Assembly (NCBI GenBank): GCA_900550385.1
Contig: URRZ01000001.1
Location: 15,049-79,048 of the forward strand
Source: an uncultured Coriobacteriaceae bacterium
GTDB lineage: Bacteria; Actinomycetota; Coriobacteriia; Coriobacteriales; Eggerthellaceae
DNA: 64,000 nt
Direction of reading: 5' to 3'
Every line of letters begins with the position of its first letter. Within the stretch, counting starts at the first letter, position 1. A program made the translations under genes and the position numbers. The notes below the pieces were generated by a model, which was given only the letters and a program-made list of their open reading frames with translations, was not told the DNA's origin and did no database searches. Below are positions 15,508 through 63,007 of this stretch, in pieces.

Positions 15508-17547
15508 CTAGTCGAGCGCGGTGATGCGGTAGAAGCGCATATCGCCTTCGCTGAGCAGCAGCTCGAACCCGGGCGTCTCGGGCGTCACCGCGTCGAACCC
15601 CTTCCAGCTATCCGGATCGTAACGCGTTGTGTCGAGGGTGGGGTCGTTTCCCGAAGGATCGTCCAGCATGATGACGTAGCGCGTCCCCGTATTCTCCAGC
15701 GCGCGACGAACCCCGTCGTCGGAGGCGACGTCTGCGAGGCCCATGCGGATAGCAGCGTTGTCCTGGGAGGGGAAGGAGTTGCCGCCATTGCTGTTATTGG
15801 TGCGGCGGAACAGCGTGGGCATGCCGTCGGTTCCGTAGCACCAGGCGGTTCCGTCGGCGGGCTTGTTCGCCGCCAGCGTGCCATCCTCCATCATCTGCAT
15901 TGCCTGCTTCACGAATGCACGCTCCTCTGCGGTGTACACGGAATCCCAGGAATACAGGTCCTCCACCTGCTGCCGCATGGCGGGCAGCCCCGCTTGGATG
16001 GTCAGATCGCCCATCTTCACGACGATGGGATTGGCGAAAAGGCTGGTGGCGAGCAGCGTCGCGAGGGCGCCCGCCGTCAAGATCCTCCGCGCTCTCCCAT
16101 GCTGTCCCAGTTGGGGGATGCGTTTCAGCGCGGATGCTGCAAGCTGCGCTAGCCATGCGAATCCGAATGCAGCCAGGGGGATGGCGAACAGTGCGTTCAT
16201 CGCGGCGGTGCGGTAGAGATCCGAGTACCAGAAACCGCTTAGCAGCTGCAGGAGAAATCCTTCTGCCGACACGTTCGCCACATAGATCGCCAGCGTAAGC
16301 GCGTAGGCGATGGAGAACCACAGGTAGCGCCGCTCCCGCAGTGTCGCGATGACGCCAAGGAGCACCAGCACGGATAACCCCGGCTGGATGCCTCCCCATT
16401 TCGCGTACATGAACGACAGCGCCGAGAACACCGCTTCGGGCAGCGAGAGCGTCGCCTGCCAATCCCCGTATGTGACCACGTTGCGCAGGGGCGGCGCGAA
16501 GAACAGCGCCATCCACAGAAGGCAGGCTCCTACGATCAGGCCGAGGCCGAGGCCGACGGTTCGCGGGGTCACCGTGGCGCGCTGCGCTTGCGGGCTGCGG
16601 AAGATGCGGCACAGGCCGTAGCATGCCATCCCGATGCCGCAGACGAACGCGCCGTTGGGGTGGCCCATTGCCACCGCGACGAGCCCTATCGCGGTTCCTG
16701 CGGCGATCTTCGCGCGGTTTTGCGCCCCTTTCGCCTCGATTGCGCCGACGAACAGCGCCAAAACGGCGGGGACGAGCGCATAGGACAGCAGGTTGGGAAA
16801 AAGCTGTCCCCTTGTGAGGAAGCCCCATGGGAAAATGGCGAACGCCAAGGTGAACAGGCTTCCGGCGAGCACCACGCCCTGTTTTTCCGGAGCCGCCGTG
16901 CTCAGCAAGAGGTGCATTCCCAAAGGGAGCACCGCGCAGCAGGTCGCCAACGTGAGCGCGTTGGTCGCGGTGTCGACGCTGTCGCCGACGGCGGATGCGG
17001 CGATGGCGGCGACGATGTGCCAAGCGGCGGGGTAGAATGCCCCTTCCGTCCCTTCGGCGAGGAAGGGTCCGCAGTTCAGGATGGAGTAGGTTCCCGAATC
17101 CAAGAAGGCGCGCACTAGCGAAAGGTGCGCCGTGGTGTCGTATTTCCGGGCGAACGAATCGGGGCCGTCGATGGCGGTGAGGAACATCGTCGCGCACACG
17201 ACGAGCGCGACCGCAACGTAGAGGGCCTGTTCATGCCAAACCGATTTTCCCGACAAGGGGAGGACATCCGTGTCGCCGTTCGCCGCGACGCCCTTGCGGC
17301 GCGCGCTCCGGCATGCCGCGTACACGACGAGGGCTATAACCAGCTCCGCCGCAAGCAGCGTCAGAGCGGGGCAGGCTACGCCCGCCGCCGCGAGGGCGAT
17401 GCCGATGACGACGATCAAGGGGATGCTTGATGCAGGAGCCGCTGCGAGAGCGGCGGCAGGCGCGAAGTTCAAAGCGCGGCCGATGAGGTAGCCCGGCGCG
17501 TAGAGTGCGATTGCGACGACGAGGAATGCGAGGGCGAATTCCGCCAT
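15508..17547 (-). CDS. Large polytopic membrane protein (GT-C-like architecture, function unknown), paralog 1
   Basis: About 14 predicted TM segments precede a soluble C-terminal domain ending PETPGFELLLSEGDMRFYRI. The start was set at MAEFAL (GGAG site 5 nt upstream) by alignment to its neighbour. Confidence 0.7.
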   Translation of the reverse strand: MAEFALAFLVVAIALYAPGYLIGRALNFAPAAALAAAPASSIPLIVVIGIALAAAGVACPALTLLAAELVIALVVYAACRSARRKGVAANGDTDVLPLSGKSVWHEQALYVAVALVVCATMFLTAIDGPDSFARKYDTTAHLSLVRAFLDSGTYSILNCGPFLAEGTEGAFYPAAWHIVAAIAASAVGDSVDTATNALTLATCCAVLPLGMHLLLSTAAPEKQGVVLAGSLFTLAFAIFPWGFLTRGQLFPNLLSYALVPAVLALFVGAIEAKGAQNRAKIAAGTAIGLVAVAMGHPNGAFVCGIGMACYGLCRIFRSPQAQRATVTPRTVGLGLGLIVGACLLWMALFFAPPLRNVVTYGDWQATLSLPEAVFSALSFMYAKWGGIQPGLSVLVLLGVIATLRERRYLWFSIAYALTLAIYVANVSAEGFLLQLLSGFWYSDLYRTAAMNALFAIPLAAFGFAWLAQLAASALKRIPQLGQHGRARRILTAGALATLLATSLFANPIVVKMGDLTIQAGLPAMRQQVEDLYSWDSVYTAEERAFVKQAMQMMEDGTLAANKPADGTAWCYGTDGMPTLFRRTNNSNGGNSFPSQDNAAIRMGLADVASDDGVRRALENTGTRYVIMLDDPSGNDPTLDTTRYDPDSWKGFDAVTPETPGFELLLSEGDMRFYRITALD

Positions 17548-17712
17548 AATGCTCCAATCGATTGCCGATGCCGCTATGCGGCGATTCACCGTTGCCGTTG
17601 CAAGTATAGGGCATCGCCCGGGGCGCGATTCGAAGGAGCGGCGGGATGGATGCCGAACGCGGCACGTGGGTCCATGCCGTCTCCGCCCCGCGTTCGTCCG
17701 ACATCGGTGGGG

Positions 17713-19743
17713 TTAGGACTCCTCGATCGCCTCGATCTCGTAGAGGCGCATGTCGCCTTCGCTGAGGATGAGCTCGAAACCCGGCGTCTCCGGGGTGATC
17801 GACTCGATGCCCGCCCAGTTTTCGGCCTTGTAGCGTTTCTCGTCGGATCTTGTGGGGTTGTCGCTTGAAAGGTCATCGAGTATTAGCAGGTAACGGGCGT
17901 CGAGCTCGCGCAGCGTCTGCTGCACCTCCTGGTCGGTGGCGACTTGGTTCAGCTTCGTTCGTATAAGGGCCGCTTCCTCGCCGTCCGCCCGCGCCCCGGT
18001 GTTGGACGAGCGCCGGTAATACGTGTTGATGCCTTCGACGCCGTAGCTCCAGCAGCTCCCGTCGCTCGGCACGTTGATGACGAGCGCGTCCTCGGGCAGC
18101 ACCTCGTCCATGATCTTTCGAATGAACTCGTCCTCCTCGGCGGTGAGGCCGTTCTCCCACGAGTAGCGCGTGCCTATCTGGTGGTTTATGCTCGACAGGC
18201 TCAGATAGACCTGCCTATCCCGGTAATCGACGTGGATGGGGGTGAACTGGAGCAGCGCGAAAACGATCGTGACGATGACGCCGATCGCCCCTGCATACCA
18301 TGCTGTCGATTTGCCGGGCTTCTTCCGCGCGAGCGCCCTCCTCATCCATGCGGCGATCCATGCCAGGCCAAGCGATGCCACGGGGATCGCGAAAAGCGCG
18401 CACATGGCTCCGGTGCGGTTGTAATCGGTGTACCAGAAGCCGATGAGGAGCTGCTTGACGGGGCTGTCGGTCGAAGTGCCGATGATGTGGGCGACGAGCG
18501 CGACGAGGTAGACGACCGTCAGCCAGAGGTAGCGCCGATCCCGCAGCGTCTTCACGATGCCGACTACCGTGAACAGCGTGAGCAGGGGCTGCACGCCCTG
18601 GCGAACGGAGAACATGAAGAAGGGGCTGCTCGCCAGCGCCTCGAAGGGCGAAAGCGATGCCTCCCACGTGTAGTTCACCACCGACTGCAAAAACGGCATG
18701 TTGTACATCACCACCCAGAGGGCGCAGGCGGACGCGAATAGGGCGACGGCGGCAACGACCCTGCCGGCGGAGATTCTCGGCTTGTCCTCGTCAGGGGCGA
18801 AGAACAGGCGGCTTACGGCGTAGGCTACGATGAGGATGCCGAGCGTGAACACCCCGTTGGGCTGCGTGAGGGCGATGCTTACGAATCCGAGCAGCACGGC
18901 CGCCGCAAGCTTCATCTTGTCCGCCGACCGCGTTGCGTCGGGGATGCCGGCGAACGCTGCGAGGACGGCCGGTACGAAGATGAACGCGGCCATGTTCGGC
19001 AGCAGCTGGCCCCACACGACGAAACCCCAGGGGAAGCCGCAGAACGCGAGGACGAGGATCGACCCGGCGATAATCACGGGCTTGTCGCGGCGGAAGACCT
19101 TCTCGAACAGGCACAGCATCCCCAAGGGGAACGCGAGCACGAGGAACACCGTGATGGAGGCGTTGAAGGAAAGGGCGACCGAGCCTCCGGTGATCGAGGC
19201 GAGCAGCGCGCAGACGACATGCCATGCCGCCGGATAGTACCCGGTGCTATCGAGGTTCTGGTCGAGGAACGAGCTGGTGTGCAGGGTCGAGAAAGTGCCG
19301 GTGTCCATGAAGCCCCGCGTCAGGGAAAGGTGGACGGTGCTGTCGTCGTTGCGCGAGAAGGAGTAGGGGCCGTCTATCCCCAAGAGGTACACGATGAGGA
19401 AAACCACCAGGGAGACGGCGACGTACAACGCGGCGATGCGCACCAGCTCGCGCGAGGCGAGGCGGGGTCGAAGGAGGTCGCTCGCGCCTTTGCCCGCGAA
19501 CCTGCGCGCAACGAATGCGAGGAGGCTGAGCACGATCACGGAAAAGATGATCGCCCAAGGAGGGCAGGGCCTTGCGACCTCGTAGGCGACCACGCCCGCC
19601 ACCGTGAACAGCATCATGGAGAAGACAGGGGCTATCGCCACGGAGGCGAACCGGCTGAAGGGGAACGAGCGTGCCAGAAGATAGCCGGGTATGTAGAGAA
19701 GCGCGATGCAGGCTAGGACGGCGAACAGGTATGCGAGCCACAT
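17713..19743 (-). CDS. Large polytopic membrane protein, paralog 2 (tandem duplicate of 15508..17547)
   Basis: It is collinear with paralog 1 from YIPGYLLAR near the N-terminus to PETPGFELILSEGDMRLYEI at the C-terminus. Confidence 0.7.
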   Translation of the reverse strand: MWLAYLFAVLACIALLYIPGYLLARSFPFSRFASVAIAPVFSMMLFTVAGVVAYEVARPCPPWAIIFSVIVLSLLAFVARRFAGKGASDLLRPRLASRELVRIAALYVAVSLVVFLIVYLLGIDGPYSFSRNDDSTVHLSLTRGFMDTGTFSTLHTSSFLDQNLDSTGYYPAAWHVVCALLASITGGSVALSFNASITVFLVLAFPLGMLCLFEKVFRRDKPVIIAGSILVLAFCGFPWGFVVWGQLLPNMAAFIFVPAVLAAFAGIPDATRSADKMKLAAAVLLGFVSIALTQPNGVFTLGILIVAYAVSRLFFAPDEDKPRISAGRVVAAVALFASACALWVVMYNMPFLQSVVNYTWEASLSPFEALASSPFFMFSVRQGVQPLLTLFTVVGIVKTLRDRRYLWLTVVYLVALVAHIIGTSTDSPVKQLLIGFWYTDYNRTGAMCALFAIPVASLGLAWIAAWMRRALARKKPGKSTAWYAGAIGVIVTIVFALLQFTPIHVDYRDRQVYLSLSSINHQIGTRYSWENGLTAEEDEFIRKIMDEVLPEDALVINVPSDGSCWSYGVEGINTYYRRSSNTGARADGEEAALIRTKLNQVATDQEVQQTLRELDARYLLILDDLSSDNPTRSDEKRYKAENWAGIESITPETPGFELILSEGDMRLYEIEAIEES

Positions 19744-49740: not shown

Positions 49741-50418
49741 TCAGTAGCGCTGGGCGTCGCCGGCGGCGTAGTCATCGAAGAGCTGGCGGCAGGTGTCGCG
49801 GTCGAACTCCTGCAGGCTCACTGTCTCTTCCTCGCCGTTGAGCTGGCGGTAGAACGCGTCGTCGCGGAAGCCGATCTCGGCGCTGTCCTCGCGCGTGCAG
49901 CCGTAGTAGACGGCATCCATGTTGGACCAGAGGACCGCACCCAAACACATCGGGCATGGCTCGGCGGTGGTGTAGAGCTCGCAGCCCGTCAGATCGTGTG
50001 TGCCCAGGTTGCGGCACGCGTCGCGGATCGCCTCCATCTCGCCGTGGCAGGTGGGGTCGTTGTTCGCCAGCACGCGGTTGTGGCCTCGGCCGACGATCTC
50101 GCCGTCCTTCACGATGACCGATCCGAACGGCCCGCCGTCGCCCGCCTGGATGCCCTGGTAGGCTTCGTCGATCGCGATCTGCATGAATTCGGAGGAGGGC
50201 TGCATGTCGGTTCCTTCGGTGTCGGTGGATTCGTCAGATCCGTTGGCGGAGCTTTGCTCGGCGGTTTGGGCTTGCGAAGCCGTTTCGGTTTGCGAAGCGG
50301 CGTCTTGCTCGGTTGACGCTGTGTCGTTTCCTGCGGATGAGCAGCCCGTCAGCGCGATAGCCAGAAAGAGAGCGGCGACGATGCCGACGAGCGTGCGCAG
50401 CTTAGAGGATGAGGCCAT
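49741..50418 (-). CDS. CDA-fold nucleoside/guanine deaminase with a lipoprotein signal peptide and a low-complexity linker
   Basis: It has a lipobox (LAIALTGC) after a positively charged N-terminus, then a Ser/Thr/Glu/Gln-rich linker. The zinc motifs HGEMEAI and PCPMCLGA are present. The start is at ATG 50418. Confidence 0.8.
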   Translation of the reverse strand: MASSSKLRTLVGIVAALFLAIALTGCSSAGNDTASTEQDAASQTETASQAQTAEQSSANGSDESTDTEGTDMQPSSEFMQIAIDEAYQGIQAGDGGPFGSVIVKDGEIVGRGHNRVLANNDPTCHGEMEAIRDACRNLGTHDLTGCELYTTAEPCPMCLGAVLWSNMDAVYYGCTREDSAEIGFRDDAFYRQLNGEEETVSLQEFDRDTCRQLFDDYAAGDAQRY

Positions 50419-50534
50419 AGCGGGTCCTTTCGACGGGGACATGCAACCATGGTAGCATGCGGTGCGCTCGGCGTGACCGTCCGAATAGACGACGCGATAG
50501 GGGGAACGGTCTCTTTTCCGCATCGGCGCAATGC

Positions 50535-50559
50535 GGGATAGCGACTGTCTCTTTATCAC
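50535..50559. repeat. Degenerate copy of the A/T-flanked palindrome (GATAGCGAC-TGTC-TCTTTATC)
   Basis: It lies in the divergent region between the deaminase start and the first GG-leader peptide gene. Confidence 0.5.
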
Positions 50560-50657
50560 GCCCTCAGTTTTTCACGGTGTGCAGGTCGCAAGCTCGCGTT
50601 CACTCCTCAAAGCGCCTATTGGTTCCCATGCCTCGCAATGCTCGGGCTTCCGTTCCA

Positions 50658-50663
50658 TATAAT
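50658..50663 (+). promoter_or_regulatory. Candidate -10 box (perfect TATAAT) upstream of the GG-leader peptide genes
   Basis: A TATAAT hexamer lies 50 nt upstream of the ATG at 50713. No convincing -35 element was seen. Confidence 0.35.
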
Positions 50664-50712
50664 CAAGTCGAGGCGCAAGCAAGCGCTCCCGTCTCCAAAA
50701 ATAGGAGGCATC

Positions 50713-50982
50713 ATGGTAAAGATCACGAAAGGCGAGCACGGCTTGCTCGCCGACGGCAAGCCCATCGACGAGAGCTCGTTCACCGAACTTTCCGATGAGG
50801 ATCTCGAGCAGACATCAGGCGGCATCACGGTGATCCAGCATTTCGACGGTAGCAGCGTCGATAAGCTGCGGTGCTGGCAATGCGGCGGCGAAGACTGGGA
50901 TCTCATCGGCTGGCGCGCCGATAACAAGCTCTGGGCGCGCTGCAAGAAGTGCGGATGGGAAGACTGTGCCGAGTTCTACTAG
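50713..50982 (+). CDS. Small protein A (89 aa): double-glycine leader plus zinc-ribbon-like Cys-rich core
   Basis: An AGGAGG site lies 4 nt upstream. The leader ends FTELSDEDLEQTSGG. The core carries CWQC-N19-CKKC plus one extra Cys. Confidence 0.7.
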   Translation: MVKITKGEHGLLADGKPIDESSFTELSDEDLEQTSGGITVIQHFDGSSVDKLRCWQCGGEDWDLIGWRADNKLWARCKKCGWEDCAEFY

Positions 50983-51031
50983 GCCGTCTTCACGGCACCT
51001 AGACACCGTTTTCAATGCGAAGGAGAACGCG

Positions 51032-51352
51032 ATGAGCAATTCCGAACACGATGCCACGGGCAAGATGCCGGAACTGGCCGGCGAGGTCGAGCTGAAAGAC
51101 GCGGAGATTGCCGAGGTTTCCGGTGGTGCAACGGGTGGCCTCTATCCCGAGAAAATCCATTGGGAGGATCTCGTGGAGTGGCGCGTGCGATGCAGCAACT
51201 GCGGCTCGAGCTATGTGAAGAGGAATTCCGGCTACGAGTACATGGTCAGCGGCCTTCGCGCAACCTGCGACTACTGCGGGAGTTCCAGCGTCGAAACGCA
51301 TTTCATGAGGATGATTCAGGAAGGGTATTACCCGTCGTCGCAGTTCAGGTAA
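51032..51352 (+). CDS. Small protein B (106 aa): double-glycine leader plus zinc-ribbon-like core
   Basis: An AAGGAGA site lies 5 nt upstream. The leader ends VELKDAEIAEVSGG. The core carries CSNC-N21-CDYC. Confidence 0.7.
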   Translation: MSNSEHDATGKMPELAGEVELKDAEIAEVSGGATGGLYPEKIHWEDLVEWRVRCSNCGSSYVKRNSGYEYMVSGLRATCDYCGSSSVETHFMRMIQEGYYPSSQFR

Positions 51353-51440
51353 GCGAAAGTGCGCTGCGCCTGCGGTTTGCGGCGCGGCGGAAACTAGGGC
51401 AACGGGGGCGTGGCTCGTTGCCCCAAAGGAAGGAGTCATC

Positions 51441-51689
51441 ATGACCGACGAGAGAATCCCAAACGTTGAGCCTGTCGATTATAAGATCCTTTCCGACGAG
51501 GACATGGTCCTTTCCGACGAGGAGCTGGCCGACGCAACCGGCGGGGTGATGATCTATCCCTCGCAAAGGATGCGGGCGACCTGCGGGGATTGCGGGTACT
51601 CTTTCTATGTGCTGGTGCCTCTTGGCCGCAAGCCGGTCGTGGGTTGCCCGAAATGCAGAAGCGGGCGGGTTGGCCTCATGGCAATCTAG
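51441..51689 (+). CDS. Small protein C (82 aa): double-glycine leader plus zinc-ribbon-like core
   Basis: A GGAAGGAG site lies 6 nt upstream. The leader is ILSDEDMVLSDEELADATGG. The core carries CGDC-N17-CPKC. Confidence 0.7.
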   Translation: MTDERIPNVEPVDYKILSDEDMVLSDEELADATGGVMIYPSQRMRATCGDCGYSFYVLVPLGRKPVVGCPKCRSGRVGLMAI

Positions 51690-51767
51690 GCCGCCGAACG
51701 CTTTCGGTCTGAAACAGGGCAACGGACAACGCAAACGGGACAACGGCGGCGCAGCACGTTGCCCCGG

Positions 51768-51800
51768 AATGAGAAAAGGGGTCTGACCCCTTTTCTCATT
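51768..51800 (+). terminator. Perfect 16-bp-arm palindrome with A/T flanks, the likely terminator of the three-peptide unit
   Basis: The sequence is AATGAGAAAAGGGGTC-T-GACCCCTTTTCTCATT. Confidence 0.7.
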
Positions 51801-51918
51801 TTCTGTCGGTAATGTCTTCCGACCAGATTTCATGTACTGCAAACACATAAAATAATAAAAATCGTGTATTATAAATACACGAAATGTAATTCCACATGCG
51901 AATGCCCTGGAGGGAGAA

Positions 51919-53286
51919 ATGAGGAGAAAGATCGAGAACCTCATCGAGGCGTGGGCGACTGCTCCCGCGAATCGTCCTTTGCTGATCCGCGGAGCTCGCC
52001 GTGTCGGGAAAACCTACGTGGTCGAAGAAGTTGGCAAACGCATCGCGGGCAACAACTTCGTGAAACTCGATTTCCAGACCGATCTCGAACTCATCGCCCC
52101 GCTTTTCAACGGCCCTACCGACGATGTAGATGCCGTAATGAAACGCGTTGCGGAGTATAAGCGGGTTCGGTTGGATAAAAGCAGCGCCTTCGTCTTTTTC
52201 GACGAAGTCCAACTGTGCGAGCGTGCGCTTAATTCGCTCCGATTCTTTTCGGGCTCGGGGTGGCGCGTGATAGCAACGGGAAGCCAGCTTGGCGTTGCAA
52301 CGCGCAAGCGCGATCTTCCATTTCCGAGCGGTGTGCAGCAGGAGACGATGCATCCCCTGACCTTCGAGGAGTTCCTTTGGGCGCTTGGCGAAGAGCCGAT
52401 GGCAGAGGCGATTCGGGATCACGCGCGAACGTTGGAGCCGTATCCTGCGCATGAGAAGGCACTGGAGCATTATCGCCTCTACCAGGTTATCGGGGGCTTT
52501 CCGGCGGCGGTGGCTGAATATGTTCGGACGGGGGACATCGATGAAGCCCGCATCCAGCAGCGGGAGGTGGATGCGATCTACACCGCCGACATGACGGATC
52601 CGGAAAACGGGATCAGCGCCCTTGCCGCACGCAAGGTGTGGCGCAGCATATCTTCGCAATTGCTGCGATCATCGACGAAGAAATTCAAGTATGCGGAGGT
52701 CGAGCGCGGCGGGAGAAGGGCGAAGCTCATGGAGCCCCTCGATTGGCTCGAAGGTGCCGGCATGGTTTCCATCAACAATCTGACCCAATGCATCGAGGCG
52801 CCGCTTGTCCCCTATGATGACGAGGAGGGGAGCTTCTTCAAGGTGTACTTGGCCGATACGGGGCTGATGTTCTATAAGCTCGCGGTGAATCCGCGCCTCT
52901 GGCTCGAGGCGGAAGCGGCTTCCGGTTTGCCCGCGTCCTCCGATTTTCGGGGGGCGCTTGCGGAAAACTCGGTGATGCAGGCGCTTACGGCCGCCGATCT
53001 GCAAACGTACTACTGGACTCCGCCTTCCTCGTGGGGAGGTTCGGGCGAATTGGATTTTCTTTTGCAGGACGACCATATGAGGGTGATTCCCGTCGAAGTC
53101 AAGTCGACGCGCAATGTCCGTGCGAAAACCCTCGCCACGTTCATGGGTAAGGCCGGTTCCCCCTATGCGATAGTGCTCTCGAACCGTGATTTCGGATGTT
53201 CCGAGGGGGTGCAAGGCGAAGAGGTTAGGGAGCTTCCCCTCTATGCGGCTTATTGCATCGGCGAAGGATGCGCCAAGAGGGAGTGA
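51919..53286 (+). CDS. AAA-family ATPase with a C-terminal DUF4143-like (restriction-endonuclease-like) domain
   Basis: It has the Walker A motif GARRVGKT and the Walker B-like motif FVFFDEVQ. The C-terminus has ELDFLL..VIPVEVK. A GGAGGGAG Shine-Dalgarno site is present. Confidence 0.85.
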   Translation: MRRKIENLIEAWATAPANRPLLIRGARRVGKTYVVEEVGKRIAGNNFVKLDFQTDLELIAPLFNGPTDDVDAVMKRVAEYKRVRLDKSSAFVFFDEVQLCERALNSLRFFSGSGWRVIATGSQLGVATRKRDLPFPSGVQQETMHPLTFEEFLWALGEEPMAEAIRDHARTLEPYPAHEKALEHYRLYQVIGGFPAAVAEYVRTGDIDEARIQQREVDAIYTADMTDPENGISALAARKVWRSISSQLLRSSTKKFKYAEVERGGRRAKLMEPLDWLEGAGMVSINNLTQCIEAPLVPYDDEEGSFFKVYLADTGLMFYKLAVNPRLWLEAEAASGLPASSDFRGALAENSVMQALTAADLQTYYWTPPSSWGGSGELDFLLQDDHMRVIPVEVKSTRNVRAKTLATFMGKAGSPYAIVLSNRDFGCSEGVQGEEVRELPLYAAYCIGEGCAKRE

Positions 53287-53795
53287 TTCGGGGAAGCCTA
53301 TGACGAACAACCGCCACGCTAGTCCAGCAATTCAGCTTCCAACGCGAGGCGACGCTTGATGGCGTTGCGGATGACGAGCGCACAGGCAGCGAAGCAGGCG
53401 ATATAGGTGAACTAGCGAAAATGATAAGATAGGCTATCAAAATCGCGATTATCGATATTTGATAGGTTATGTTCGGGAACGTATGCGCTCGTCATCGGGT
53501 CGGACGCGTTTCCGGTCAAAGACTTCCTTCTTGGCCGTGTGCCCTTGTTTCAATGACGGGTGGTAAAAGAACGAGAGAGATGGAGTTCCTCTTCTCGCTG
53601 GCTCGGCGGTTTCGTATTTCCATACGGGTTAGAGCCAGCCTCCTGATCAGGCCTTTGCAACCGCAGGGCGCCCGAAACCCGCGCAAAATGAAGCCTGCAG
53701 TTGGTGGATCGGACGGCGCGGCTATCCCACAATAGACTTTGCCGGCATGAAACGACCGATCTGCGCGCCGCGGAAAGGGGGCAGTCACCTTTTTG

Positions 53796-59333: not shown

Positions 59334-59433
59334 TGCGTAATCGTTCATATGCATCGTTGTTGGATGATTTTTCCGATGAATCGCTACATTGTTATCCAAA
59401 TATAACATTCAACGAGAAACGGAGAGATGCGGA

Positions 59434-61284
59434 ATGGAAGGAAGGCGAGATCAGCGCGCGTCGAAGAATCGGCAGCGCAACCCCATCATGCGGCTGCTCG
59501 ATTTCGCGGGCGGGTATAAAAAGCTCACGATCCTCGGCTGCGTGCTGTCGGGCGTGAACGCGCTGTGCGCTATCGCGATGCTCGTGTGCGTGTGGTTCGT
59601 GCTGCGAGATCTCATCGCGGTGGCGCCCGACTGGTCGGCGGCGCCGAATGCGACAGGCTACGGCATCGCGGCGTTCGCGTTCGCGCTTGCTGGGCTCGTC
59701 ATCTACTTCGCGGCGCTCATGTGCACGCATCTTGCGGCGTTCCGCACGGCGACGAACATGCGCGCCGCCGCGCTCGAGCACCTCTCCCGTGTGCCGCTCG
59801 GATACTTCGACGCGCACGCGACCGGCGAGCTGCGCCGCGTCATCGAGGGAGCGACCGGGCTTACCGAGGGCGTGCTCGCGCATCGTTTCCCCGATTTCGT
59901 GGGCGCGCTCGTCACGCCTGTGGCGTACCTCGTCGTCATGGTCGCCGTCGACTGGGTACTGGGTCTGCTCTGCCTCGTGCCCGTTGCCGTGTCCGCCGCG
60001 TGCATGTTCTGGATGATGGCCGGAGGCGGCGGCGACGAGAACACCAACATGATGACGTTCATGAAGAACTACCAAGACGCGCTCGACCGCATGAACAAAG
60101 CGGCGGTCGAATACGTCCGCGGCATCCCCGTCGTGAAGGTGTTCCAGCAGACGGTGCGGTCGTTTTCCACCTTCCGCGAGTCGATTCGGGCATATCGGGA
60201 GTTCGCGAGCGCCTACGTGCGCCTCTGCACGCCGCCTCAGGTGGCGCAGCTCGTGGCGATCAACTCCACGTTCGCCGTGCTCGTGCCGGCGGGCATCCTG
60301 CTCGCGCAGAACGCGGGCGATTTCGCGGCGTTTCTTTCCGACTACCTGTTCTACGTCGTCTTCTCCGCTCTCACGACCATGATGATGACGAGGGTGATGT
60401 ACGCCTCGCAGGCGCTTACCGAGGCGCAGGACGCCGTCATGCGCATCGAGCGCATCCTCGATGCGCCCGTCATGGCGGACGCGGATCCTGCGCGCGCCAC
60501 GGATCCTGCAGACGACTCGATCGAGTTCGACCGCGTGACCTTTTCCTATCCCGGAACCGACCGCCCGGCGCTCGAGAACGTGTCGTTGCGCGTGCCCGCA
60601 GGCGCCACGGTGGCGCTCGTGGGACCGAGCGGCAGCGGCAAGACGACGGCGGCGAGCCTGGTGCCGAGGTTCTGGGACGCGTGCGAAGGCGCCGTGCGGA
60701 TCGGCGGTGTCGACGTGCGCGACATCCCGCTTTCCAGCCTCATGGATCGCGTGGCGTTCGTGTTCCAGAACGACCGGCTGTTCAAGCAGAGCCTTGCCGA
60801 CAACATCCGCGCCGCCCGGCTCGACGCGACGCGCGAGGAGGTGGAGGCGGCGATGCGCGCCGCCCGATGCGACGACATCGTCGCGAAGTTCCCCGACGGG
60901 CTCGATACCGTAGCGGGTGCGCGCGGCGTCTACCTCTCCGGAGGCGAGTGCCAGCGCATCGCGCTTGCCCGGGCGATCCTCAAAGACGCCCCGATCGTCG
61001 TGCTCGACGAAGCGACGGCGTTCGCCGATCCGGAAAACGAAGCCCTCATCCAAAAGGCGCTCGCCGTGCTCGCGAAGGGCAAGACGGTGCTCATGGTGGC
61101 CCATCGGCTCTCGACGGTGGTGGATGCCGACATGATCTGCGTGCTCGACGAGGGGAGAATCGTCGAGCAAGGCGCGCACGCCGAGCTCGTGGCGGCGGGA
61201 GGCCTCTACGCGAAGATGTGGGACGATTACCGCACGAGCGTTTCGTGGCGGATTGCCGGAAAGGGGGCCGGCCATGCTGCGTAG
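59434..61284 (+). CDS. ABC transporter, fused permease/ATP-binding protein (exporter fold), half 1
   Basis: It has a six-TM domain, then GPSGSGKTT, LSGGECQRIALARA and VVLDEATA. There is no N-terminal C39 peptidase domain. Confidence 0.88.
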   Translation: MEGRRDQRASKNRQRNPIMRLLDFAGGYKKLTILGCVLSGVNALCAIAMLVCVWFVLRDLIAVAPDWSAAPNATGYGIAAFAFALAGLVIYFAALMCTHLAAFRTATNMRAAALEHLSRVPLGYFDAHATGELRRVIEGATGLTEGVLAHRFPDFVGALVTPVAYLVVMVAVDWVLGLLCLVPVAVSAACMFWMMAGGGGDENTNMMTFMKNYQDALDRMNKAAVEYVRGIPVVKVFQQTVRSFSTFRESIRAYREFASAYVRLCTPPQVAQLVAINSTFAVLVPAGILLAQNAGDFAAFLSDYLFYVVFSALTTMMMTRVMYASQALTEAQDAVMRIERILDAPVMADADPARATDPADDSIEFDRVTFSYPGTDRPALENVSLRVPAGATVALVGPSGSGKTTAASLVPRFWDACEGAVRIGGVDVRDIPLSSLMDRVAFVFQNDRLFKQSLADNIRAARLDATREEVEAAMRAARCDDIVAKFPDGLDTVAGARGVYLSGGECQRIALARAILKDAPIVVLDEATAFADPENEALIQKALAVLAKGKTVLMVAHRLSTVVDADMICVLDEGRIVEQGAHAELVAAGGLYAKMWDDYRTSVSWRIAGKGAGHAA

Positions 61285-63007
61285 CGCGCTCGGACTCACC
61301 GATCAGGGGTGGCGCACCTTCAAGCGGGGCGTGCTCTTCTGCGCGATCTCGAACCTCGTGCTCATGGCGCCGATGTGCATCCTGTTCCTGCTCGTGCGCG
61401 ATTTCATGGCCCACCTCGAAGCGGGGGCGCCGCTGCCGGCGCTTTGGCCGTACCTCGTCGCGGTCGTCGTCGTGCTCGCGCTCATCGCAGTGACGCAGCT
61501 GCTCGAATACCGCAACACCTACGGCCCCGTGTACGAGGAAAGCGCCCGCAAGCGCGAAGGCATCGCCGAGCGTTTGCGGCTGCTCCCGCTGTCGTTTTTC
61601 GGCACACGCGATCTGTCCGATCTCACGAACACCATCATGAAGGACTGCGCGGACCAGGAGCGGCTGTTCATGCACGTGGTGCCGCAGCTGTTCGGCACGG
61701 GCGTATCGAGCGCTGTCATCATCGTCGGCGTGATCGCTTTCGATTGGCGGCTCGGGCTCGCGGCGTTCTGGCCGCTGCCGGTCGCGGTGGCGATCATGGC
61801 GGTGACGAGCGGCTATTCCAACCGCAGGATCAAAGCGAAGGAAGCGCGCCGCCTCGAAATGATCGACGGCGTACAGGAATATCTCGACTGCGCGCGCGAG
61901 ATCCGCGCGACGAACCGCGCAGGTGCGTTTCTCGGGGAACTGCGCGGAAGGCTCGGCGCGTTCGAGCGGGCGCAGGTGGCGTCCGAGCTCGCCACGGGCG
62001 TGACGATCTCGTCCGGGCAGGCGTTCCTCAAGCTCGGCATCGCCACGACCATCCTTGCGGGGGCGGCGCTCATCGTGTCGGGCGGTGTGGATTTCCTCAC
62101 GTACTTTGTATTCCTCCTCATCGTCACGCGCGTGTACGACCCCATCAACGTCGTGCTACAGTCGAGCGCAGAGCTCATGGAGATGCGCCATTCGATCCGC
62201 CGCACGAACGCGCTTGCGGCCGAGTGTCCCATGACGGGATCGAAGGACTTTCGCCCGCAAGGCCATGATGTGGCGTTTCGCGATGTGTCGTTCTCCTACG
62301 GAGGCACCGACGAGGCGGTGCTTGCTAATGTGACGTTCACGGCGCGCGAGGGCGAGGTCACGGCGCTCGTAGGGCCGTCCGGTTCGGGTAAGTCGACGTG
62401 CGCGAAGCTCGCCTGCCGTTTCTGGGATGCTGACGCGGGGTGTGTGACCGTGGGCGGCGTGGACGTAGCGACGGTGGACCCCGAGGTGCTGCTTGCCGAT
62501 TTCGCACAGGTCTTCCAAGACGTCGTGCTTTTCGACGAAACGATCATGGACAACATCTGGATCGGCCGCGAGGGCGCCACCGACGAGGACGTGCTTGCCG
62601 CCGCGCATGCTGCGAACTGCGACGGGTTCGTGAGCCTTCTGCCGGAAGGCTACACCACGAAGATCGGCGAGAACGGGGCGCGCCTCTCGGGTGGCGAGCG
62701 CCAGCGCATCTCGATCGCCCGGGCGCTTCTGAAGGACGCGCCGATCGTCGTGCTCGACGAGGCGACGGCCTCTCTCGACGTGGAGAACGAGACGGAGGTG
62801 CAGCAGGCGCTCTCGAGGCTTCTCGCCGGCAAGACGGTCATCGTGATCGCGCACCGCATGCGCACGGTCATGGGCGCCGACCACGTGGTCGTGCTCGAGG
62901 AGGGTCGCGTGGCCGAGCAGGGCAGCCCGCAAGAGCTCATGGCGGCCGGCGGCCTGTTCGAACGAATGGTTCGCTTACAGACTGAAAGCGCGGAGTGGAC
63001 GCTGTGA
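61274..63007 (+). CDS. ABC transporter, fused permease/ATP-binding protein, half 2 (heterodimer partner)
   Basis: It has GPSGSGKST, LSGGERQRISIARA and VVLDEATA. It overlaps the upstream gene by 11 nt. Confidence 0.88.
   Translation: MLRSALGLTDQGWRTFKRGVLFCAISNLVLMAPMCILFLLVRDFMAHLEAGAPLPALWPYLVAVVVVLALIAVTQLLEYRNTYGPVYEESARKREGIAERLRLLPLSFFGTRDLSDLTNTIMKDCADQERLFMHVVPQLFGTGVSSAVIIVGVIAFDWRLGLAAFWPLPVAVAIMAVTSGYSNRRIKAKEARRLEMIDGVQEYLDCAREIRATNRAGAFLGELRGRLGAFERAQVASELATGVTISSGQAFLKLGIATTILAGAALIVSGGVDFLTYFVFLLIVTRVYDPINVVLQSSAELMEMRHSIRRTNALAAECPMTGSKDFRPQGHDVAFRDVSFSYGGTDEAVLANVTFTAREGEVTALVGPSGSGKSTCAKLACRFWDADAGCVTVGGVDVATVDPEVLLADFAQVFQDVVLFDETIMDNIWIGREGATDEDVLAAAHAANCDGFVSLLPEGYTTKIGENGARLSGGERQRISIARALLKDAPIVVLDEATASLDVENETEVQQALSRLLAGKTVIVIAHRMRTVMGADHVVVLEEGRVAEQGSPQELMAAGGLFERMVRLQTESAEWTL

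Follow-up and report, generated by a model that had tools for sequence, protein, structure and literature searches.

Three neighbouring Slackia genes for small proteins with double-glycine-type leaders and predicted zinc-ribbon cores

Layout of the A, B and C genes

The window (the whole 64-kb stretch of DNA analysed) contains three real genes, A, B and C, that are neighbours in a gut Slackia genome. Re-reading of the sequence bore out the description given in an earlier note: three + strand ORFs of 89, 106 and 82 aa, strong Shine-Dalgarno (SD) sites 4-5 nt 5′ of each ATG, and core regions of 52, 74 and 47 aa whose CxxC pairs lie 19, 21 and 17 residues apart. The features of the locus are as follows.

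50658-50663, + strand: candidate −10 hexamer TATAAT, ~50 nt 5′ of the ATG of A, read by eye
50713-50982 (50713-50979 plus stop), + strand: gene A, 89 aa; SD AGGAGG at 50703-50708
50713-50823, + strand: gene A leader, 37 aa, ending ..LSDEDLEQTSGG (..FTELSDEDLEQTSGG)
50824-50979, + strand: gene A core, 52 aa, CWQC-19-CKKC
51032-51352 (51032-51349 plus stop), + strand: gene B, 106 aa; SD AAGGAGA
51032-51127, + strand: gene B leader, 32 aa, ending ..LKDAEIAEVSGG (..VELKDAEIAEVSGG)
51128-51349, + strand: gene B core, 74 aa, CSNC-21-CDYC
51397-51423, + strand: putative GC-rich hairpin GGGGCAACG...CGUUGCCCC in the B-C spacer; z of the spacer alone only −1.6
51441-51689 (51441-51686 plus stop), + strand: gene C, 82 aa; SD GGAAGGAG
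51441-51545, + strand: gene C leader, 35 aa, ending ..LSDEELADATGG (..VLSDEELADATGG)
51546-51686, + strand: gene C core, 47 aa, CGDC-17-CPKC
51716-51764, 3′ of C: hairpin related to that of the B-C spacer
51768-51800, no strand assigned: likely terminator of the A-B-C transcript, a perfect 15-bp hairpin followed by a T-run
53322-53405, − strand: remnant of a membrane-protein gene, the last 28 codons of a 207-aa gene (tblastn, 82% identity)

The TATAAT hexamer is a candidate only, because no complete sigma-70 site turned up in a strict scan for both hexamers. The terminator region (51687-51800) folded with z = −4.8, and 0 of 200 shuffles folded equally well; the hairpin at 51768-51800 also reads as a hairpin on the opposite strand. 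An Rfam scan of positions 50300-52000 returned nothing near threshold. The 207-aa membrane protein, which has several hydrophobic stretches, is encoded by an intact gene immediately 3′ of C at loci L005, L006 and L012-L014, while in the window an AAA_14/DUF4143 gene (51919-53286) fills this space. The GC3 of A-C is 0.73-0.77, below the genome norm of ~0.9.

A leader and a core module conserved together

When all six frames of the window were searched with a GG-leader regular expression, three matches were obtained, namely A, B and C, each with two CxxC motifs downstream; this co-occurrence exceeds chance. At other loci (~0.5 Mb), nearly all matches to the same expression were family members, other double-glycine peptides or fragments, and two were clear false positives. 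Counted back from the GG, positions −12/−7 are L/L in A, L/I in B and L/L in C, position −4 is T, V and A, respectively, and A has F at −15, as the earlier note had described. Its statement that all three leaders are acidic at −8/−9 has to be corrected, since B has Ala at −9 and no acidic residue there. A logo built from 53 family proteins (L-12 in 51, E-8 in 40, L-7 in 45, A/V-4 in 46 and GG in all 53) agreed position by position with the classical LSxxELxxIxGG signal, supporting the double-glycine pattern proposed from the three genes, and an I/V-x-I motif right after the GG was likewise conserved. Leaders of the family are acidic and 17-47 aa long, with the consensus L-S/T-D-E-E-L-x-x-A/V-x-G-G; all 53 combined contain a single Cys. 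Those of the A/A′ type carry a long conserved N-terminal extension (MAKIxxGENGxL..), and a leader-swapped variant (P0005) indicates that leaders are exchangeable between cores. In AlphaFold models the leader was of low confidence, with a short helix at −9 to −5.

Weak but specific matches were found to the leader parts of the TIGR01847 (bacteriocin_sig), BriC, Lactococcin, cerein 7B and Bacteriocin_IIc models, with C matching the Lactococcin leader model at E 0.0026. Against TIGR01847, a 15-position model, A scored 14.8 bits (E 0.034), just under the cut-off of 15.7 bits, B and C were unlisted, and 2 of 51 family members matched at E ≤ 0.01. Judged by their sequences, the leaders of A, B and C match the double-glycine (C39/PCAT-type) consensus.

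The cores of A, B and C are predicted to adopt a Cys4 zinc-ribbon fold. At least four Cys are present in 52 of the 53 family cores, which measure ~42-79 aa and have a CxxC-CxxC spacer of 13-28 residues; the net charges of the A, B and C cores are −2, 0 and +6. C matched Zn_ribbon_8 (PF09723) with 24.6 bits (E 2.5e-5), below the gathering threshold of 34.4 bits, and A and B gave only weak matches, to other zinc-ribbon models in Pfam. Zn_ribbon_8 was matched by 13 of 51 family members (best E 6.6e-7), and PF09723 appears in precomputed tables for many orthologs of C, as 'weak' wherever the match is marked. The AlphaFold model of C had a core pLDDT of ~90, with strands flanking the CxxC knuckles. 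Its top PDB matches in Foldseek were an MCM Cys4 zinc module (probability 1.0, rmsd 2.4 Å over 40 residues) and ribosomal zinc-ribbon proteins, with E-values of only ~0.1 because the C core domain is so short; a search with a first, low-confidence model of A was uninformative. Together, the HMM matches, the C model and the Foldseek Cys4 modules favour the zinc-ribbon signature claimed earlier, as a prediction. Of the HMM scans that had been suggested as a check, it can be said that both modules gave weak matches, whereas A, B and C narrowly missed the curated cut-offs.

When 1.84 billion representative proteins were searched with a profile, 162 matches were obtained, ~60 of which were small proteins matching leader and core. 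In alignments of 51 and 54 sequences, with a mean identity of 20-21%, the GG and two or three of the four Cys were invariant, and the other Cys and L-12 were nearly so. Homologs therefore keep both modules, and the family is conserved across phyla. A, B and C are paralogs in a widespread, uncurated and unnamed family rather than a Slackia oddity. Scans of A, B, C and 51 members found no Pfam or NCBIfam model for the combination of GG leader and zinc ribbon, and full-text literature searches found no description of it, in line with the earlier note, which knew of no such class. Members are annotated as 'hypothetical' or 'zinc ribbon domain-containing', and one source names a member 'predicted Zn-ribbon and HTH transcriptional regulator'. 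The profile also picked up large proteins containing 4-10 zinc-ribbon repeats; these were rejected as relatives, since they matched through the core only and have no leader. No match was obtained when two members were searched against plasmids by tblastn, and a scan of viral contigs gave a match of only 16 residues, hence no sign of phage origin.

Comparison of A, B and C with four other strains gave dN/dS values of 0.04-0.16. For A, dN/dS was 0.04-0.10 and full-length orthologs were 80-97% identical; for B, which has orthologs in every A-B-C cassette, it was 0.00-0.04 in the core and 0.20-0.86 in the leader; and for the core of C it was 0.03. The cores are thus more conserved than the leaders. 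The earlier note had spoken of a diversifying paralog family. A paralog family it is, but not a diversifying one: each paralog is under purifying selection, and strains differ in the copy number and composition of the cassette. The number of tandem genes in it ranges from two to five among strains, a fifth type of paralog (D) is at times found a few kb 5′ of it, and truncated, chimeric and leader-swapped variants occur. Some strains have a truncated or frameshifted A, a C with a Cys-to-Phe change, or neither B nor C. Intact copies are present in many metagenome assemblies, in clusters of 42-189 member sequences. Retention of GG and Cys, with dN/dS far below 1, is the reverse of the GG loss, lack of purifying selection and unconserved Cys that the earlier note had named as grounds against its proposal. 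In some strains a ZIP zinc transporter is encoded near the cassette; a link between the two was considered and rejected, the transporter not being in the window.

Exporter linkage and gene neighbourhoods

No C39-peptidase exporter was revealed in the 64-kb window when 30 large ORFs were scanned against Pfam and a C39 motif was searched for, and none lay within 10 kb at ~15 Slackia and 5 Christensenellaceae loci. The ABC pair at 59389-63007 was rejected as a dedicated exporter: it has no peptidase domain, is of generic ABCB type and scored 235-251 bits on models of the exporter cassette described below, against cut-offs of 709-853. It is also only 27-32% identical to a pair beside a Christensenella homolog. 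The Pfam scans also showed no RiPP enzyme close to the A-B-C cassette, the only radical-SAM gene in the window being 20 kb away, and no immunity gene was recognisable in the window. The earlier note, which had recognised neither a peptidase exporter or modification enzyme (within ~8 kb) nor an immunity gene, was correct on these points.

Exporter-linked members were found in two unrelated Clostridia-like lineages. At L029-L031, a family member lies 79 bp 3′ of, and on the same strand as, genes for a sigma factor, an HlyD-like protein, a C39-ABC protein, a second ABC protein and a binding protein; a second member, of the A/A′ (HWYG) subfamily to which Slackia A belongs, adjoins the cluster. At L032, two (probably three) zinc-ribbon GG peptides and one Cys-free GG peptide follow a similar exporter pair. 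The cassette is of NHLP type, consisting of a C39 peptidase/ABC protein (TIGR03796; 935 and 966 bits, cut-off 853), a second ABC protein (TIGR03797; 728 and 747 bits, cut-off 709) and an HlyD-like protein (TIGR03794; 193 bits at L029, cut-off 156). Five of the six proteins were above the curated cut-offs; the HlyD-like ORF of L032 is truncated and fell below. The complete TIGR03794/TIGR03796/TIGR03797 cassette is absent from the window and was seen only beside distant members. The occurrence of these members in C39-peptidase ABC operons lends the export idea direct genomic support.

Several other distant members are solitary and have housekeeping genes as neighbours (rlmH and tRNA synthetase genes on either side, or recG), and Christensenellaceae orthologs are much alike across genera, yet their neighbourhoods differ. 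Slackia, L032, L035 and L036 also encode, alongside family members, GG-leader peptides whose cores are unrelated. In Slackia piriformis (L019), a Cys-rich protein of 130 aa, likely a Nif11-type leader precursor (27.5 bits against 32.3), adjoins another paralog. Paralog E scored 13.6 bits on the Nif11-type model, against the same cut-off of 32.3, and A, B and C had no match to the NHLP or Nif11 leader domains (TIGR03793/TIGR03798). Within 10 kb of the family genes at ~25 distinct loci, exporter operons included, there was no LanM/LanC, YcaO or peptide-modifying radical-SAM gene. The one radical-SAM gene among these loci (L025/L026) encodes UPF0004 and TRAM domains of the kind usual in RNA methylthiotransferases.

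Interpretation and comparison with known systems

Our best reading is that the family represents a new cargo family of a known export route, and we put at roughly 60% the probability that A, B and C are precursors that are cut after the GG and leave the cell through an exporter whose genes lie elsewhere in the genome. We infer the following course of events. A, B and C would be co-transcribed from a promoter 5′ of A to the hairpin 3′ of C. The leader helix would be recognised by the C39 cysteine-peptidase domain of an NHLP/bacteriocin-type peptidase-ABC exporter, encoded elsewhere in the Slackia genome, which would cut the precursor after the GG and export the 47-74-aa core. Once exported, the mini-protein might bind a metal ion through its four Cys, or form two disulfides with them, and might signal to other cells or affect them in the manner of a bacteriocin. 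It is possible, though we hold this more tentatively, that the family constitutes a new class of exported Cys4 zinc-ribbon mini-proteins, freed from a GG leader by a peptidase-ABC exporter, acting outside the cell as folded metallo- or disulfide-stapled effectors (bacteriocin, interbacterial signal or metal scavenger). Such a class would be widely distributed among gut Coriobacteriia and Clostridia, and classifications of bacteriocins and RiPPs do not yet include it.

Alternatively, these could be intracellular zinc-ribbon proteins, such as regulators or binders of nucleic acids or proteins, in which helix and GG form a structural or partner-binding segment that merely resembles a leader, the exporter-linked relatives being a derived subset. 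Zinc ribbons are overwhelmingly cytoplasmic, one member bears a regulator name, the I/V-x-I after the GG is conserved too, and the Christensenellaceae orthologs resemble each other in differing surroundings. The many members that are single genes in unrelated, partly housekeeping contexts with no exporter keep this alternative alive. We nevertheless consider it unlikely, because the leader corresponds to the export signal at each position across phyla, is practically Cys-free, more variable than the core, poorly ordered in models and exchangeable, and because members lie inside C39-exporter operons in two independent lineages and co-occur with GG-leader peptides of unrelated cores.

Quite improbable, in our view, is that the proteins are RiPP precursors whose Cys are enzymatically modified (thioether, lanthionine, thiazoline or similar) before cleavage at the GG and export, so that the CxxC motifs would be modification sites instead of metal ligands. 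RiPP systems typically have GG leaders and an export cassette of NHLP type, the S. piriformis paralog has its likely Nif11-leader neighbour, and the N-terminal extension of A/A′ could be an enzyme-recognition element. However, peptide-modifying enzymes are missing beside the ~25 loci, the sole radical-SAM gene of the window is distant, the cores are more conserved than the leaders, and they are confidently predicted as a folded zinc ribbon that generic zinc-ribbon HMMs match. The degenerate A and C alleles, the strains with no B and C and the low GC3 might further suggest that the genes are ORFs arisen by chance, or pseudogenes in decay, within a variable region resembling an island, but the low dN/dS with near-zero change in the cores, the intact metagenomic copies, the strong SD sites and the conservation across phyla effectively refute this.

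Double-glycine export is a main Gram-positive route for bacteriocins and signals, and its known cargo consists mostly of short, unstructured or helical peptides and RiPPs. If the export reading is true, a conserved, widespread zinc-ribbon cargo widens the view of what this route carries, and adds a class of proteins, as yet without annotation, that are antimicrobial or signalling candidates from abundant gut anaerobes (Slackia, Christensenellaceae and other Clostridia), a family that has no name in the curated HMM libraries or mining tools now in use. It also raises the question of how a metal-dependent fold passes, or folds after, a peptidase-ABC exporter. The distant members inside peptidase-ABC operons make a new exported peptide type testable, and the predicted mature N-termini make the test a direct one.

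With the GG peptides of peptidase-ABC exporters (class II bacteriocins, ComC/BlpC/BriC-type pheromones, colicin V and the PCAT1 substrate CtA), the family shares the leader consensus, its length range and an acidic amphipathic helix before the GG, as well as small tandem precursor genes, multi-peptide loci and some genes far from an exporter, in addition to the distant members in C39-ABC operons. It differs in its cargo, a predicted Cys4 zinc-ribbon mini-protein in place of a short pheromone or a membrane-active peptide of cationic or hydrophobic character. Nor do its genes regularly have an immunity gene or a two-component system as neighbours, and its leaders fall narrowly short of the curated models. 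PCAT1 reportedly handles cargo of ~66 aa, so that 50-75 aa would be within range. Unlike those of typical class II (unmodified) bacteriocins, the A-C cores are neither cationic nor hydrophobic in the usual way and are beta-rich and folded in models; the window has no immunity-like gene, and the membrane-protein gene after C is only a remnant here. Ubiquitin is also found fused to zinc-ribbon ribosomal proteins, but the parallel was rejected as resemblance only, since a ubiquitin fold needs far more residues than the leader has.

The NHLP/Nif11 'NHLM bacteriocin system', reportedly described by Haft et al. in 2010, is said to combine the TIGR03794/03796/03797 cassette with precursors that have NHLP or Nif11 leaders. 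All three cassette proteins exceed their cut-offs at L029, and at L032 only the two ABC proteins do so; the leaders of the system's substrates end in GG, as in the family. The leaders of A, B and C, however, are short and classical and not NHLP or Nif11 domains of ~70-80 aa, the family has no cyclodehydratase or lanthionine synthetase, and the cassette is not part of the window. With FmdB/Zn_ribbon_8 proteins (PF09723, TIGR02605) the family shares the CxxC-(13-28)-CxxC beta-ribbon core, with scores below the gathering threshold. In FmdB-type proteins, which are not known to carry a GG leader, the ribbon is N-terminal and followed by a low-complexity tail, whereas in the family the ribbon is C-terminal, behind a leader. 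Finally, glycocins and disulfide-stapled GG bacteriocins (sublancin, glycocin F) share with the family a GG leader and at least four core Cys, and their export by a C39 ABC transporter is the route that we propose for the family. Glycocin-type cores are helical hairpins with Cx6C spacing that require a glycosyltransferase; no such enzyme is encoded near the family genes, whose products combine CxxC spacing with a predicted beta-ribbon.

Organization, expression signals and variation of the cassette

Reading of the sequence bore out the description in the earlier note of three plus-strand ORFs, with the sizes, Shine-Dalgarno sites, GG leaders and paired CxxC motifs reported there. The Shine-Dalgarno sites are strong and lie 4-5 nt before the start codons.

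Features of the cassette
50713-50979, + strand: gene A, 89 aa; core of 52 aa, predicted mature start ITVIQ..
51032-51349, + strand: gene B, 106 aa; core of 74 aa, predicted mature start ATGGLY..
51441-51686, + strand: gene C, 82 aa; core of 47 aa, predicted mature start VMIYPS..
51768-51800: perfect 15-bp hairpin with T-run, 3' of C (z = -4.8)

The N-termini are acidic up to the GG, with Leu at -12 (counted back from the GG), Leu or Ile at -7 and Thr, Val or Ala at -4. The acidic residues noted previously at -8/-9 are present in general, the sole slip being B, where -9 is Ala. The CxxC pairs are spaced by 19 (A), 21 (B) and 17 (C) residues, and alignment of A, B and C with one another shows no variation at L-12, the GG or the four Cys. 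When all six frames of the 64-kb window (66% G+C) were scanned with a GG-leader regular expression, A, B and C were the sole matches. Judging by the names of homologues, the window belongs to Slackia, a gut genus of the Coriobacteriia. All three carry the double-glycine leader motif; A falls 0.9 bit short of the cut-off of the curated leader model TIGR01847, and an NCBIfam scan found no NHLP or Nif11 domain in A, B or C.

The sequence upstream of A contains a TATAAT hexamer at a distance of about 50 nt; this and the hairpin with T-run 3' of C suggest that A, B and C form a single transcript. Hairpins of the type GGGGCAACG...CGUUGCCCC occur in the B-C spacer (51397-51423) and between C and the terminator (51716-51764); they may act in processing or attenuation, or may represent a small repeat.

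Slackia piriformis GCA_030373895.1 and numerous metagenome assemblies contain orthologous cassettes. In codon comparisons with four other strains, dN/dS was 0.04-0.10 for A, 0.06-0.10 for B (core alone, 0.00-0.04) and 0.14-0.16 for C (core alone, 0.03), the cores being more constrained than the leaders. A, B and C are real genes, and the individual paralogs are under purifying selection, contrary to the diversifying paralog family that had been proposed. Cassettes contain two to five tandem genes (L040, L041, L042, L015 and L014), and other strains have further paralogs.

Further paralogs in other Slackia strains
A': 94 aa; one or two copies
D: 75-80 aa; a few kb upstream of the cassette
E: 93 aa; solo, at a second locus in S. 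piriformis (L019)

Across strains A' occurs in zero, one or two copies, and one strain retains only A' and a truncated A. Other defects are a Cys-to-Phe change in C and the loss of both B and C. Recombinants (P0047, P0005 and P0074 being the proteins cited) include an A'-B fusion with the N-terminus of A' and the C-terminus of B (P0047), an A core carrying the A' leader (P0005) and an A'/B hybrid without the first Cys. The cassette thus behaves as an accessory, recombining multi-peptide locus. In several Slackia strains a Cys-free, very acidic GG-leader peptide (..INDADLDAVTGG LTIEEMYEKVKEELDSG..) is encoded on the opposite strand, adjoining the cassette (L001:10370-10537, -; also L013, L015 and L005); none was found in the window.

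The product of the gene divergent from A (49741-50559, -) has a deaminase domain of the cytidine/deoxycytidylate type, which also matches MafB19-like toxin deaminases (E 3e-21) and is preceded by an apparent lipoprotein signal (..LFLAIALTGCSS..) and a linker of low complexity; anchoring at the surface, if real, would be unusual for a deaminase. Just past C, and convergent with it, other strains carry, along with a small HTH gene, a gene for a 207-aa membrane protein that has several hydrophobic stretches and could be of immunity type (L005:10373-10993; L012-L014). The window holds only its last 28 codons (53322-53405, -), the space being filled by an AAA_14/DUF4143 ATPase gene of lower GC3 (0.70) with an AT-rich junction at about 51800-51900; no immunity gene for A-C was recognisable. 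A ZIP-family (ZupT-like) metal transporter gene 5-6 kb 3' of some cassettes (L012:11764-12552, L013:11319-12110, L014:15344-16129) is absent from the window, and its proximity is probably coincidental. Elsewhere in the window, two tandem paralogous DUF6541 genes (15508-19743, -) encode proteins of about 680 aa.

Joint conservation of leader and core

A profile built from 12 Slackia-type sequences gave 162 matches among 1.84 billion representative proteins. About 60 were small proteins of 64-116 aa covering both leader and core, and the remainder, matched over the core only, were large proteins built of 4-10 zinc-ribbon repeats in tandem. The latter, of about 200-890 aa (397-806 aa for P0072, P0077 and P0087) and encoded outside the window, form a separate repetitive family in which every zinc-ribbon unit follows a conserved segment, 'RKTHEQFVEEVA..NP.VEVIG.Y'. 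Alignments of 51 and 54 sequences, with a mean identity of 20-21%, show no variation at the GG or at two or three of the four Cys and almost none at L-12 and the other Cys, indicating that homologues retain both modules, a point that the earlier note had proposed to check. Genome matches lie in Christensenellaceae (Christensenella, Guopingia and one MAG), and further members in Clostridiales MAGs and 'Candidatus Aphodovivens'; in public records they are named 'hypothetical protein' or 'zinc ribbon domain-containing protein'.

Among 53 leaders, the GG is present in all, L-12 in 51, E-8 in 40, L-7 in 45 and A/V-4 in 46, with S/T at -11 and D/E at -10, a pattern that we recognise as the classical double-glycine signal for export, familiar from class II bacteriocin and ComC-type leaders. 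Net charge averages -4.9 for the leaders, which have a single Cys between them, and +1.7 for the cores, 52 of which have at least four Cys.

The HMM matches of the cores were all to zinc-ribbon models, though below curated cut-offs, Pfam gathering thresholds included: C to Zn_ribbon_8 (E 2.5e-5), B to Zn_ribbon_PaaD (E 1.8e-4) and, among 51 members, 13 to Zn_ribbon_8 (best E 6.6e-7), 13 to FmdB and 19 to ECs_2282_CxxC. In an AlphaFold model of C, from the 54-sequence alignment, the core is three-stranded (pLDDT about 90) and the leader, in which SDEEL forms a short helix, is poorly ordered. The best Foldseek match of this model was the Cys4 zinc module of archaeal/eukaryotic MCM (probability 1.0, rmsd 2.4 Å over 40 residues), and zinc-ribbon ribosomal proteins were also among the top matches; E-values of about 0.1 are in line with a domain of 40 residues. 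Judged by these profiles and the predicted fold, the core is most probably a zinc ribbon, as previously suspected, and would bind metal.

Linkage to peptidase-containing exporters

Pfam scans of 30 large ORFs and a motif scan detected no C39-peptidase ABC exporter in the window, so that its reported absence near A-C extends to the entire 64 kb; nor did any of the Slackia and Christensenellaceae loci examined have one within 10 kb. The two ABC genes at 59389-63007 lack a peptidase domain, and their scores are those of a generic exporter.

By contrast, exporter linkage at the operon level was observed in two independent lineages. In one (L029-L031), a sigma factor, an HlyD-like protein, a C39-ABC exporter (708 aa), a second ABC protein (724 aa), a binding protein and a family member are encoded on one strand, beside a second family member, which falls in the HWYG subfamily of Slackia A and A'. 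In the other (L032), the order is an HlyD-like fragment, a C39-ABC exporter (728 aa), a second ABC protein (727 aa), a zinc-ribbon GG peptide, a Cys-free GG peptide, a second zinc-ribbon GG peptide, a 98-aa ORF and a sigma-factor ORF. The exporters of the two lineages exceed the NCBIfam cut-offs that define the NHLP bacteriocin export cassette, with 935 and 966 bits for TIGR03796 (cut-off 853) and 728 and 747 bits for TIGR03797 (cut-off 709); TIGR03794 is matched above its cut-off in one lineage (L029; 193 bits, cut-off 156), the HlyD-like ORF of L032 being a fragment. With about one such exporter per genome, roughly 1% of random genes would fall within 10 kb of it, so that on this rough estimate 2 of about 9 distinct non-Slackia lineages is a strong excess. 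At two further loci (L035 and L036) family members adjoin other GG-leader peptides.

The sigma-70 ORF of L032 (10457-11116, +) runs in frame into a third GG-leader and CxxC..CxxC sequence (..LTDDKLDIVSGGASNTGVCRYCG..CRDCKK..), which is either truly fused to it or an independent peptide gene whose start is an internal Met. In Christensenella tenuis (L011:11095-13466), a multi-pass membrane protein with a histidine-kinase-like C-terminus is encoded 0.9 kb downstream of the family gene, and the next ORF, convergent, has an N-terminus resembling a response-regulator receiver domain; this layout, by eye only and at one of five loci, recalls peptide-pheromone loci.

In S. piriformis, about 30 genes from the cassette, E (L019:10001-10282, +) is divergent from a 130-aa protein (L019:9274-9666, -) with a core rich in Cys, Gly and Tyr and a Nif11-like leader (27.5 bits, cut-off 32.3), likely a Nif11-type leader precursor. 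An ABC-2 transporter and an ECF sigma factor adjoin this pair, and a DsbD-thioredoxin fusion lies 6 kb away. The presence of such a precursor beside E suggests that the Slackia genome may encode a GG-processing exporter elsewhere.

Proposed processing of A-C and relation to known export systems

We favour, with a probability of about 0.6, the reading that A, B and C are precursors, and that a peptidase-ABC exporter encoded elsewhere would cut them after the GG with its C39 domain. The resulting Cys4 mini-proteins, 52, 74 and 47 aa long, would be in a metal-bound or disulfide state and act extracellularly as a bacteriocin-like effector or signal. Alternatively, A-C could be intracellular zinc-ribbon proteins whose N-terminal segment merely looks like a leader. 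Several distant members are solitary amid housekeeping genes (P0079 between rlmH and tRNA synthetases; P0091 beside recG); set beside the operon-level linkage and the retention of the whole leader pattern, we consider this alternative unlikely. It is less likely still that A-C are Cys-modified RiPP precursors, no RiPP modifying enzyme having been found near A-C. Non-functional ORFs, for which the defective alleles of some strains might speak, are scarcely credible given the low dN/dS values.

No model in Pfam-A or NCBIfam (June 2026) combines a GG leader with a zinc ribbon, and no description of the combination was found in the literature searched. The family merits experiments, since predictions on cleavage site, secretion and metal content are simple to test. 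Compared with double-glycine-leader peptides and the NHLP-type cassette, the A-C family would share their export logic: the export route is already known, and the new element is the cargo family.
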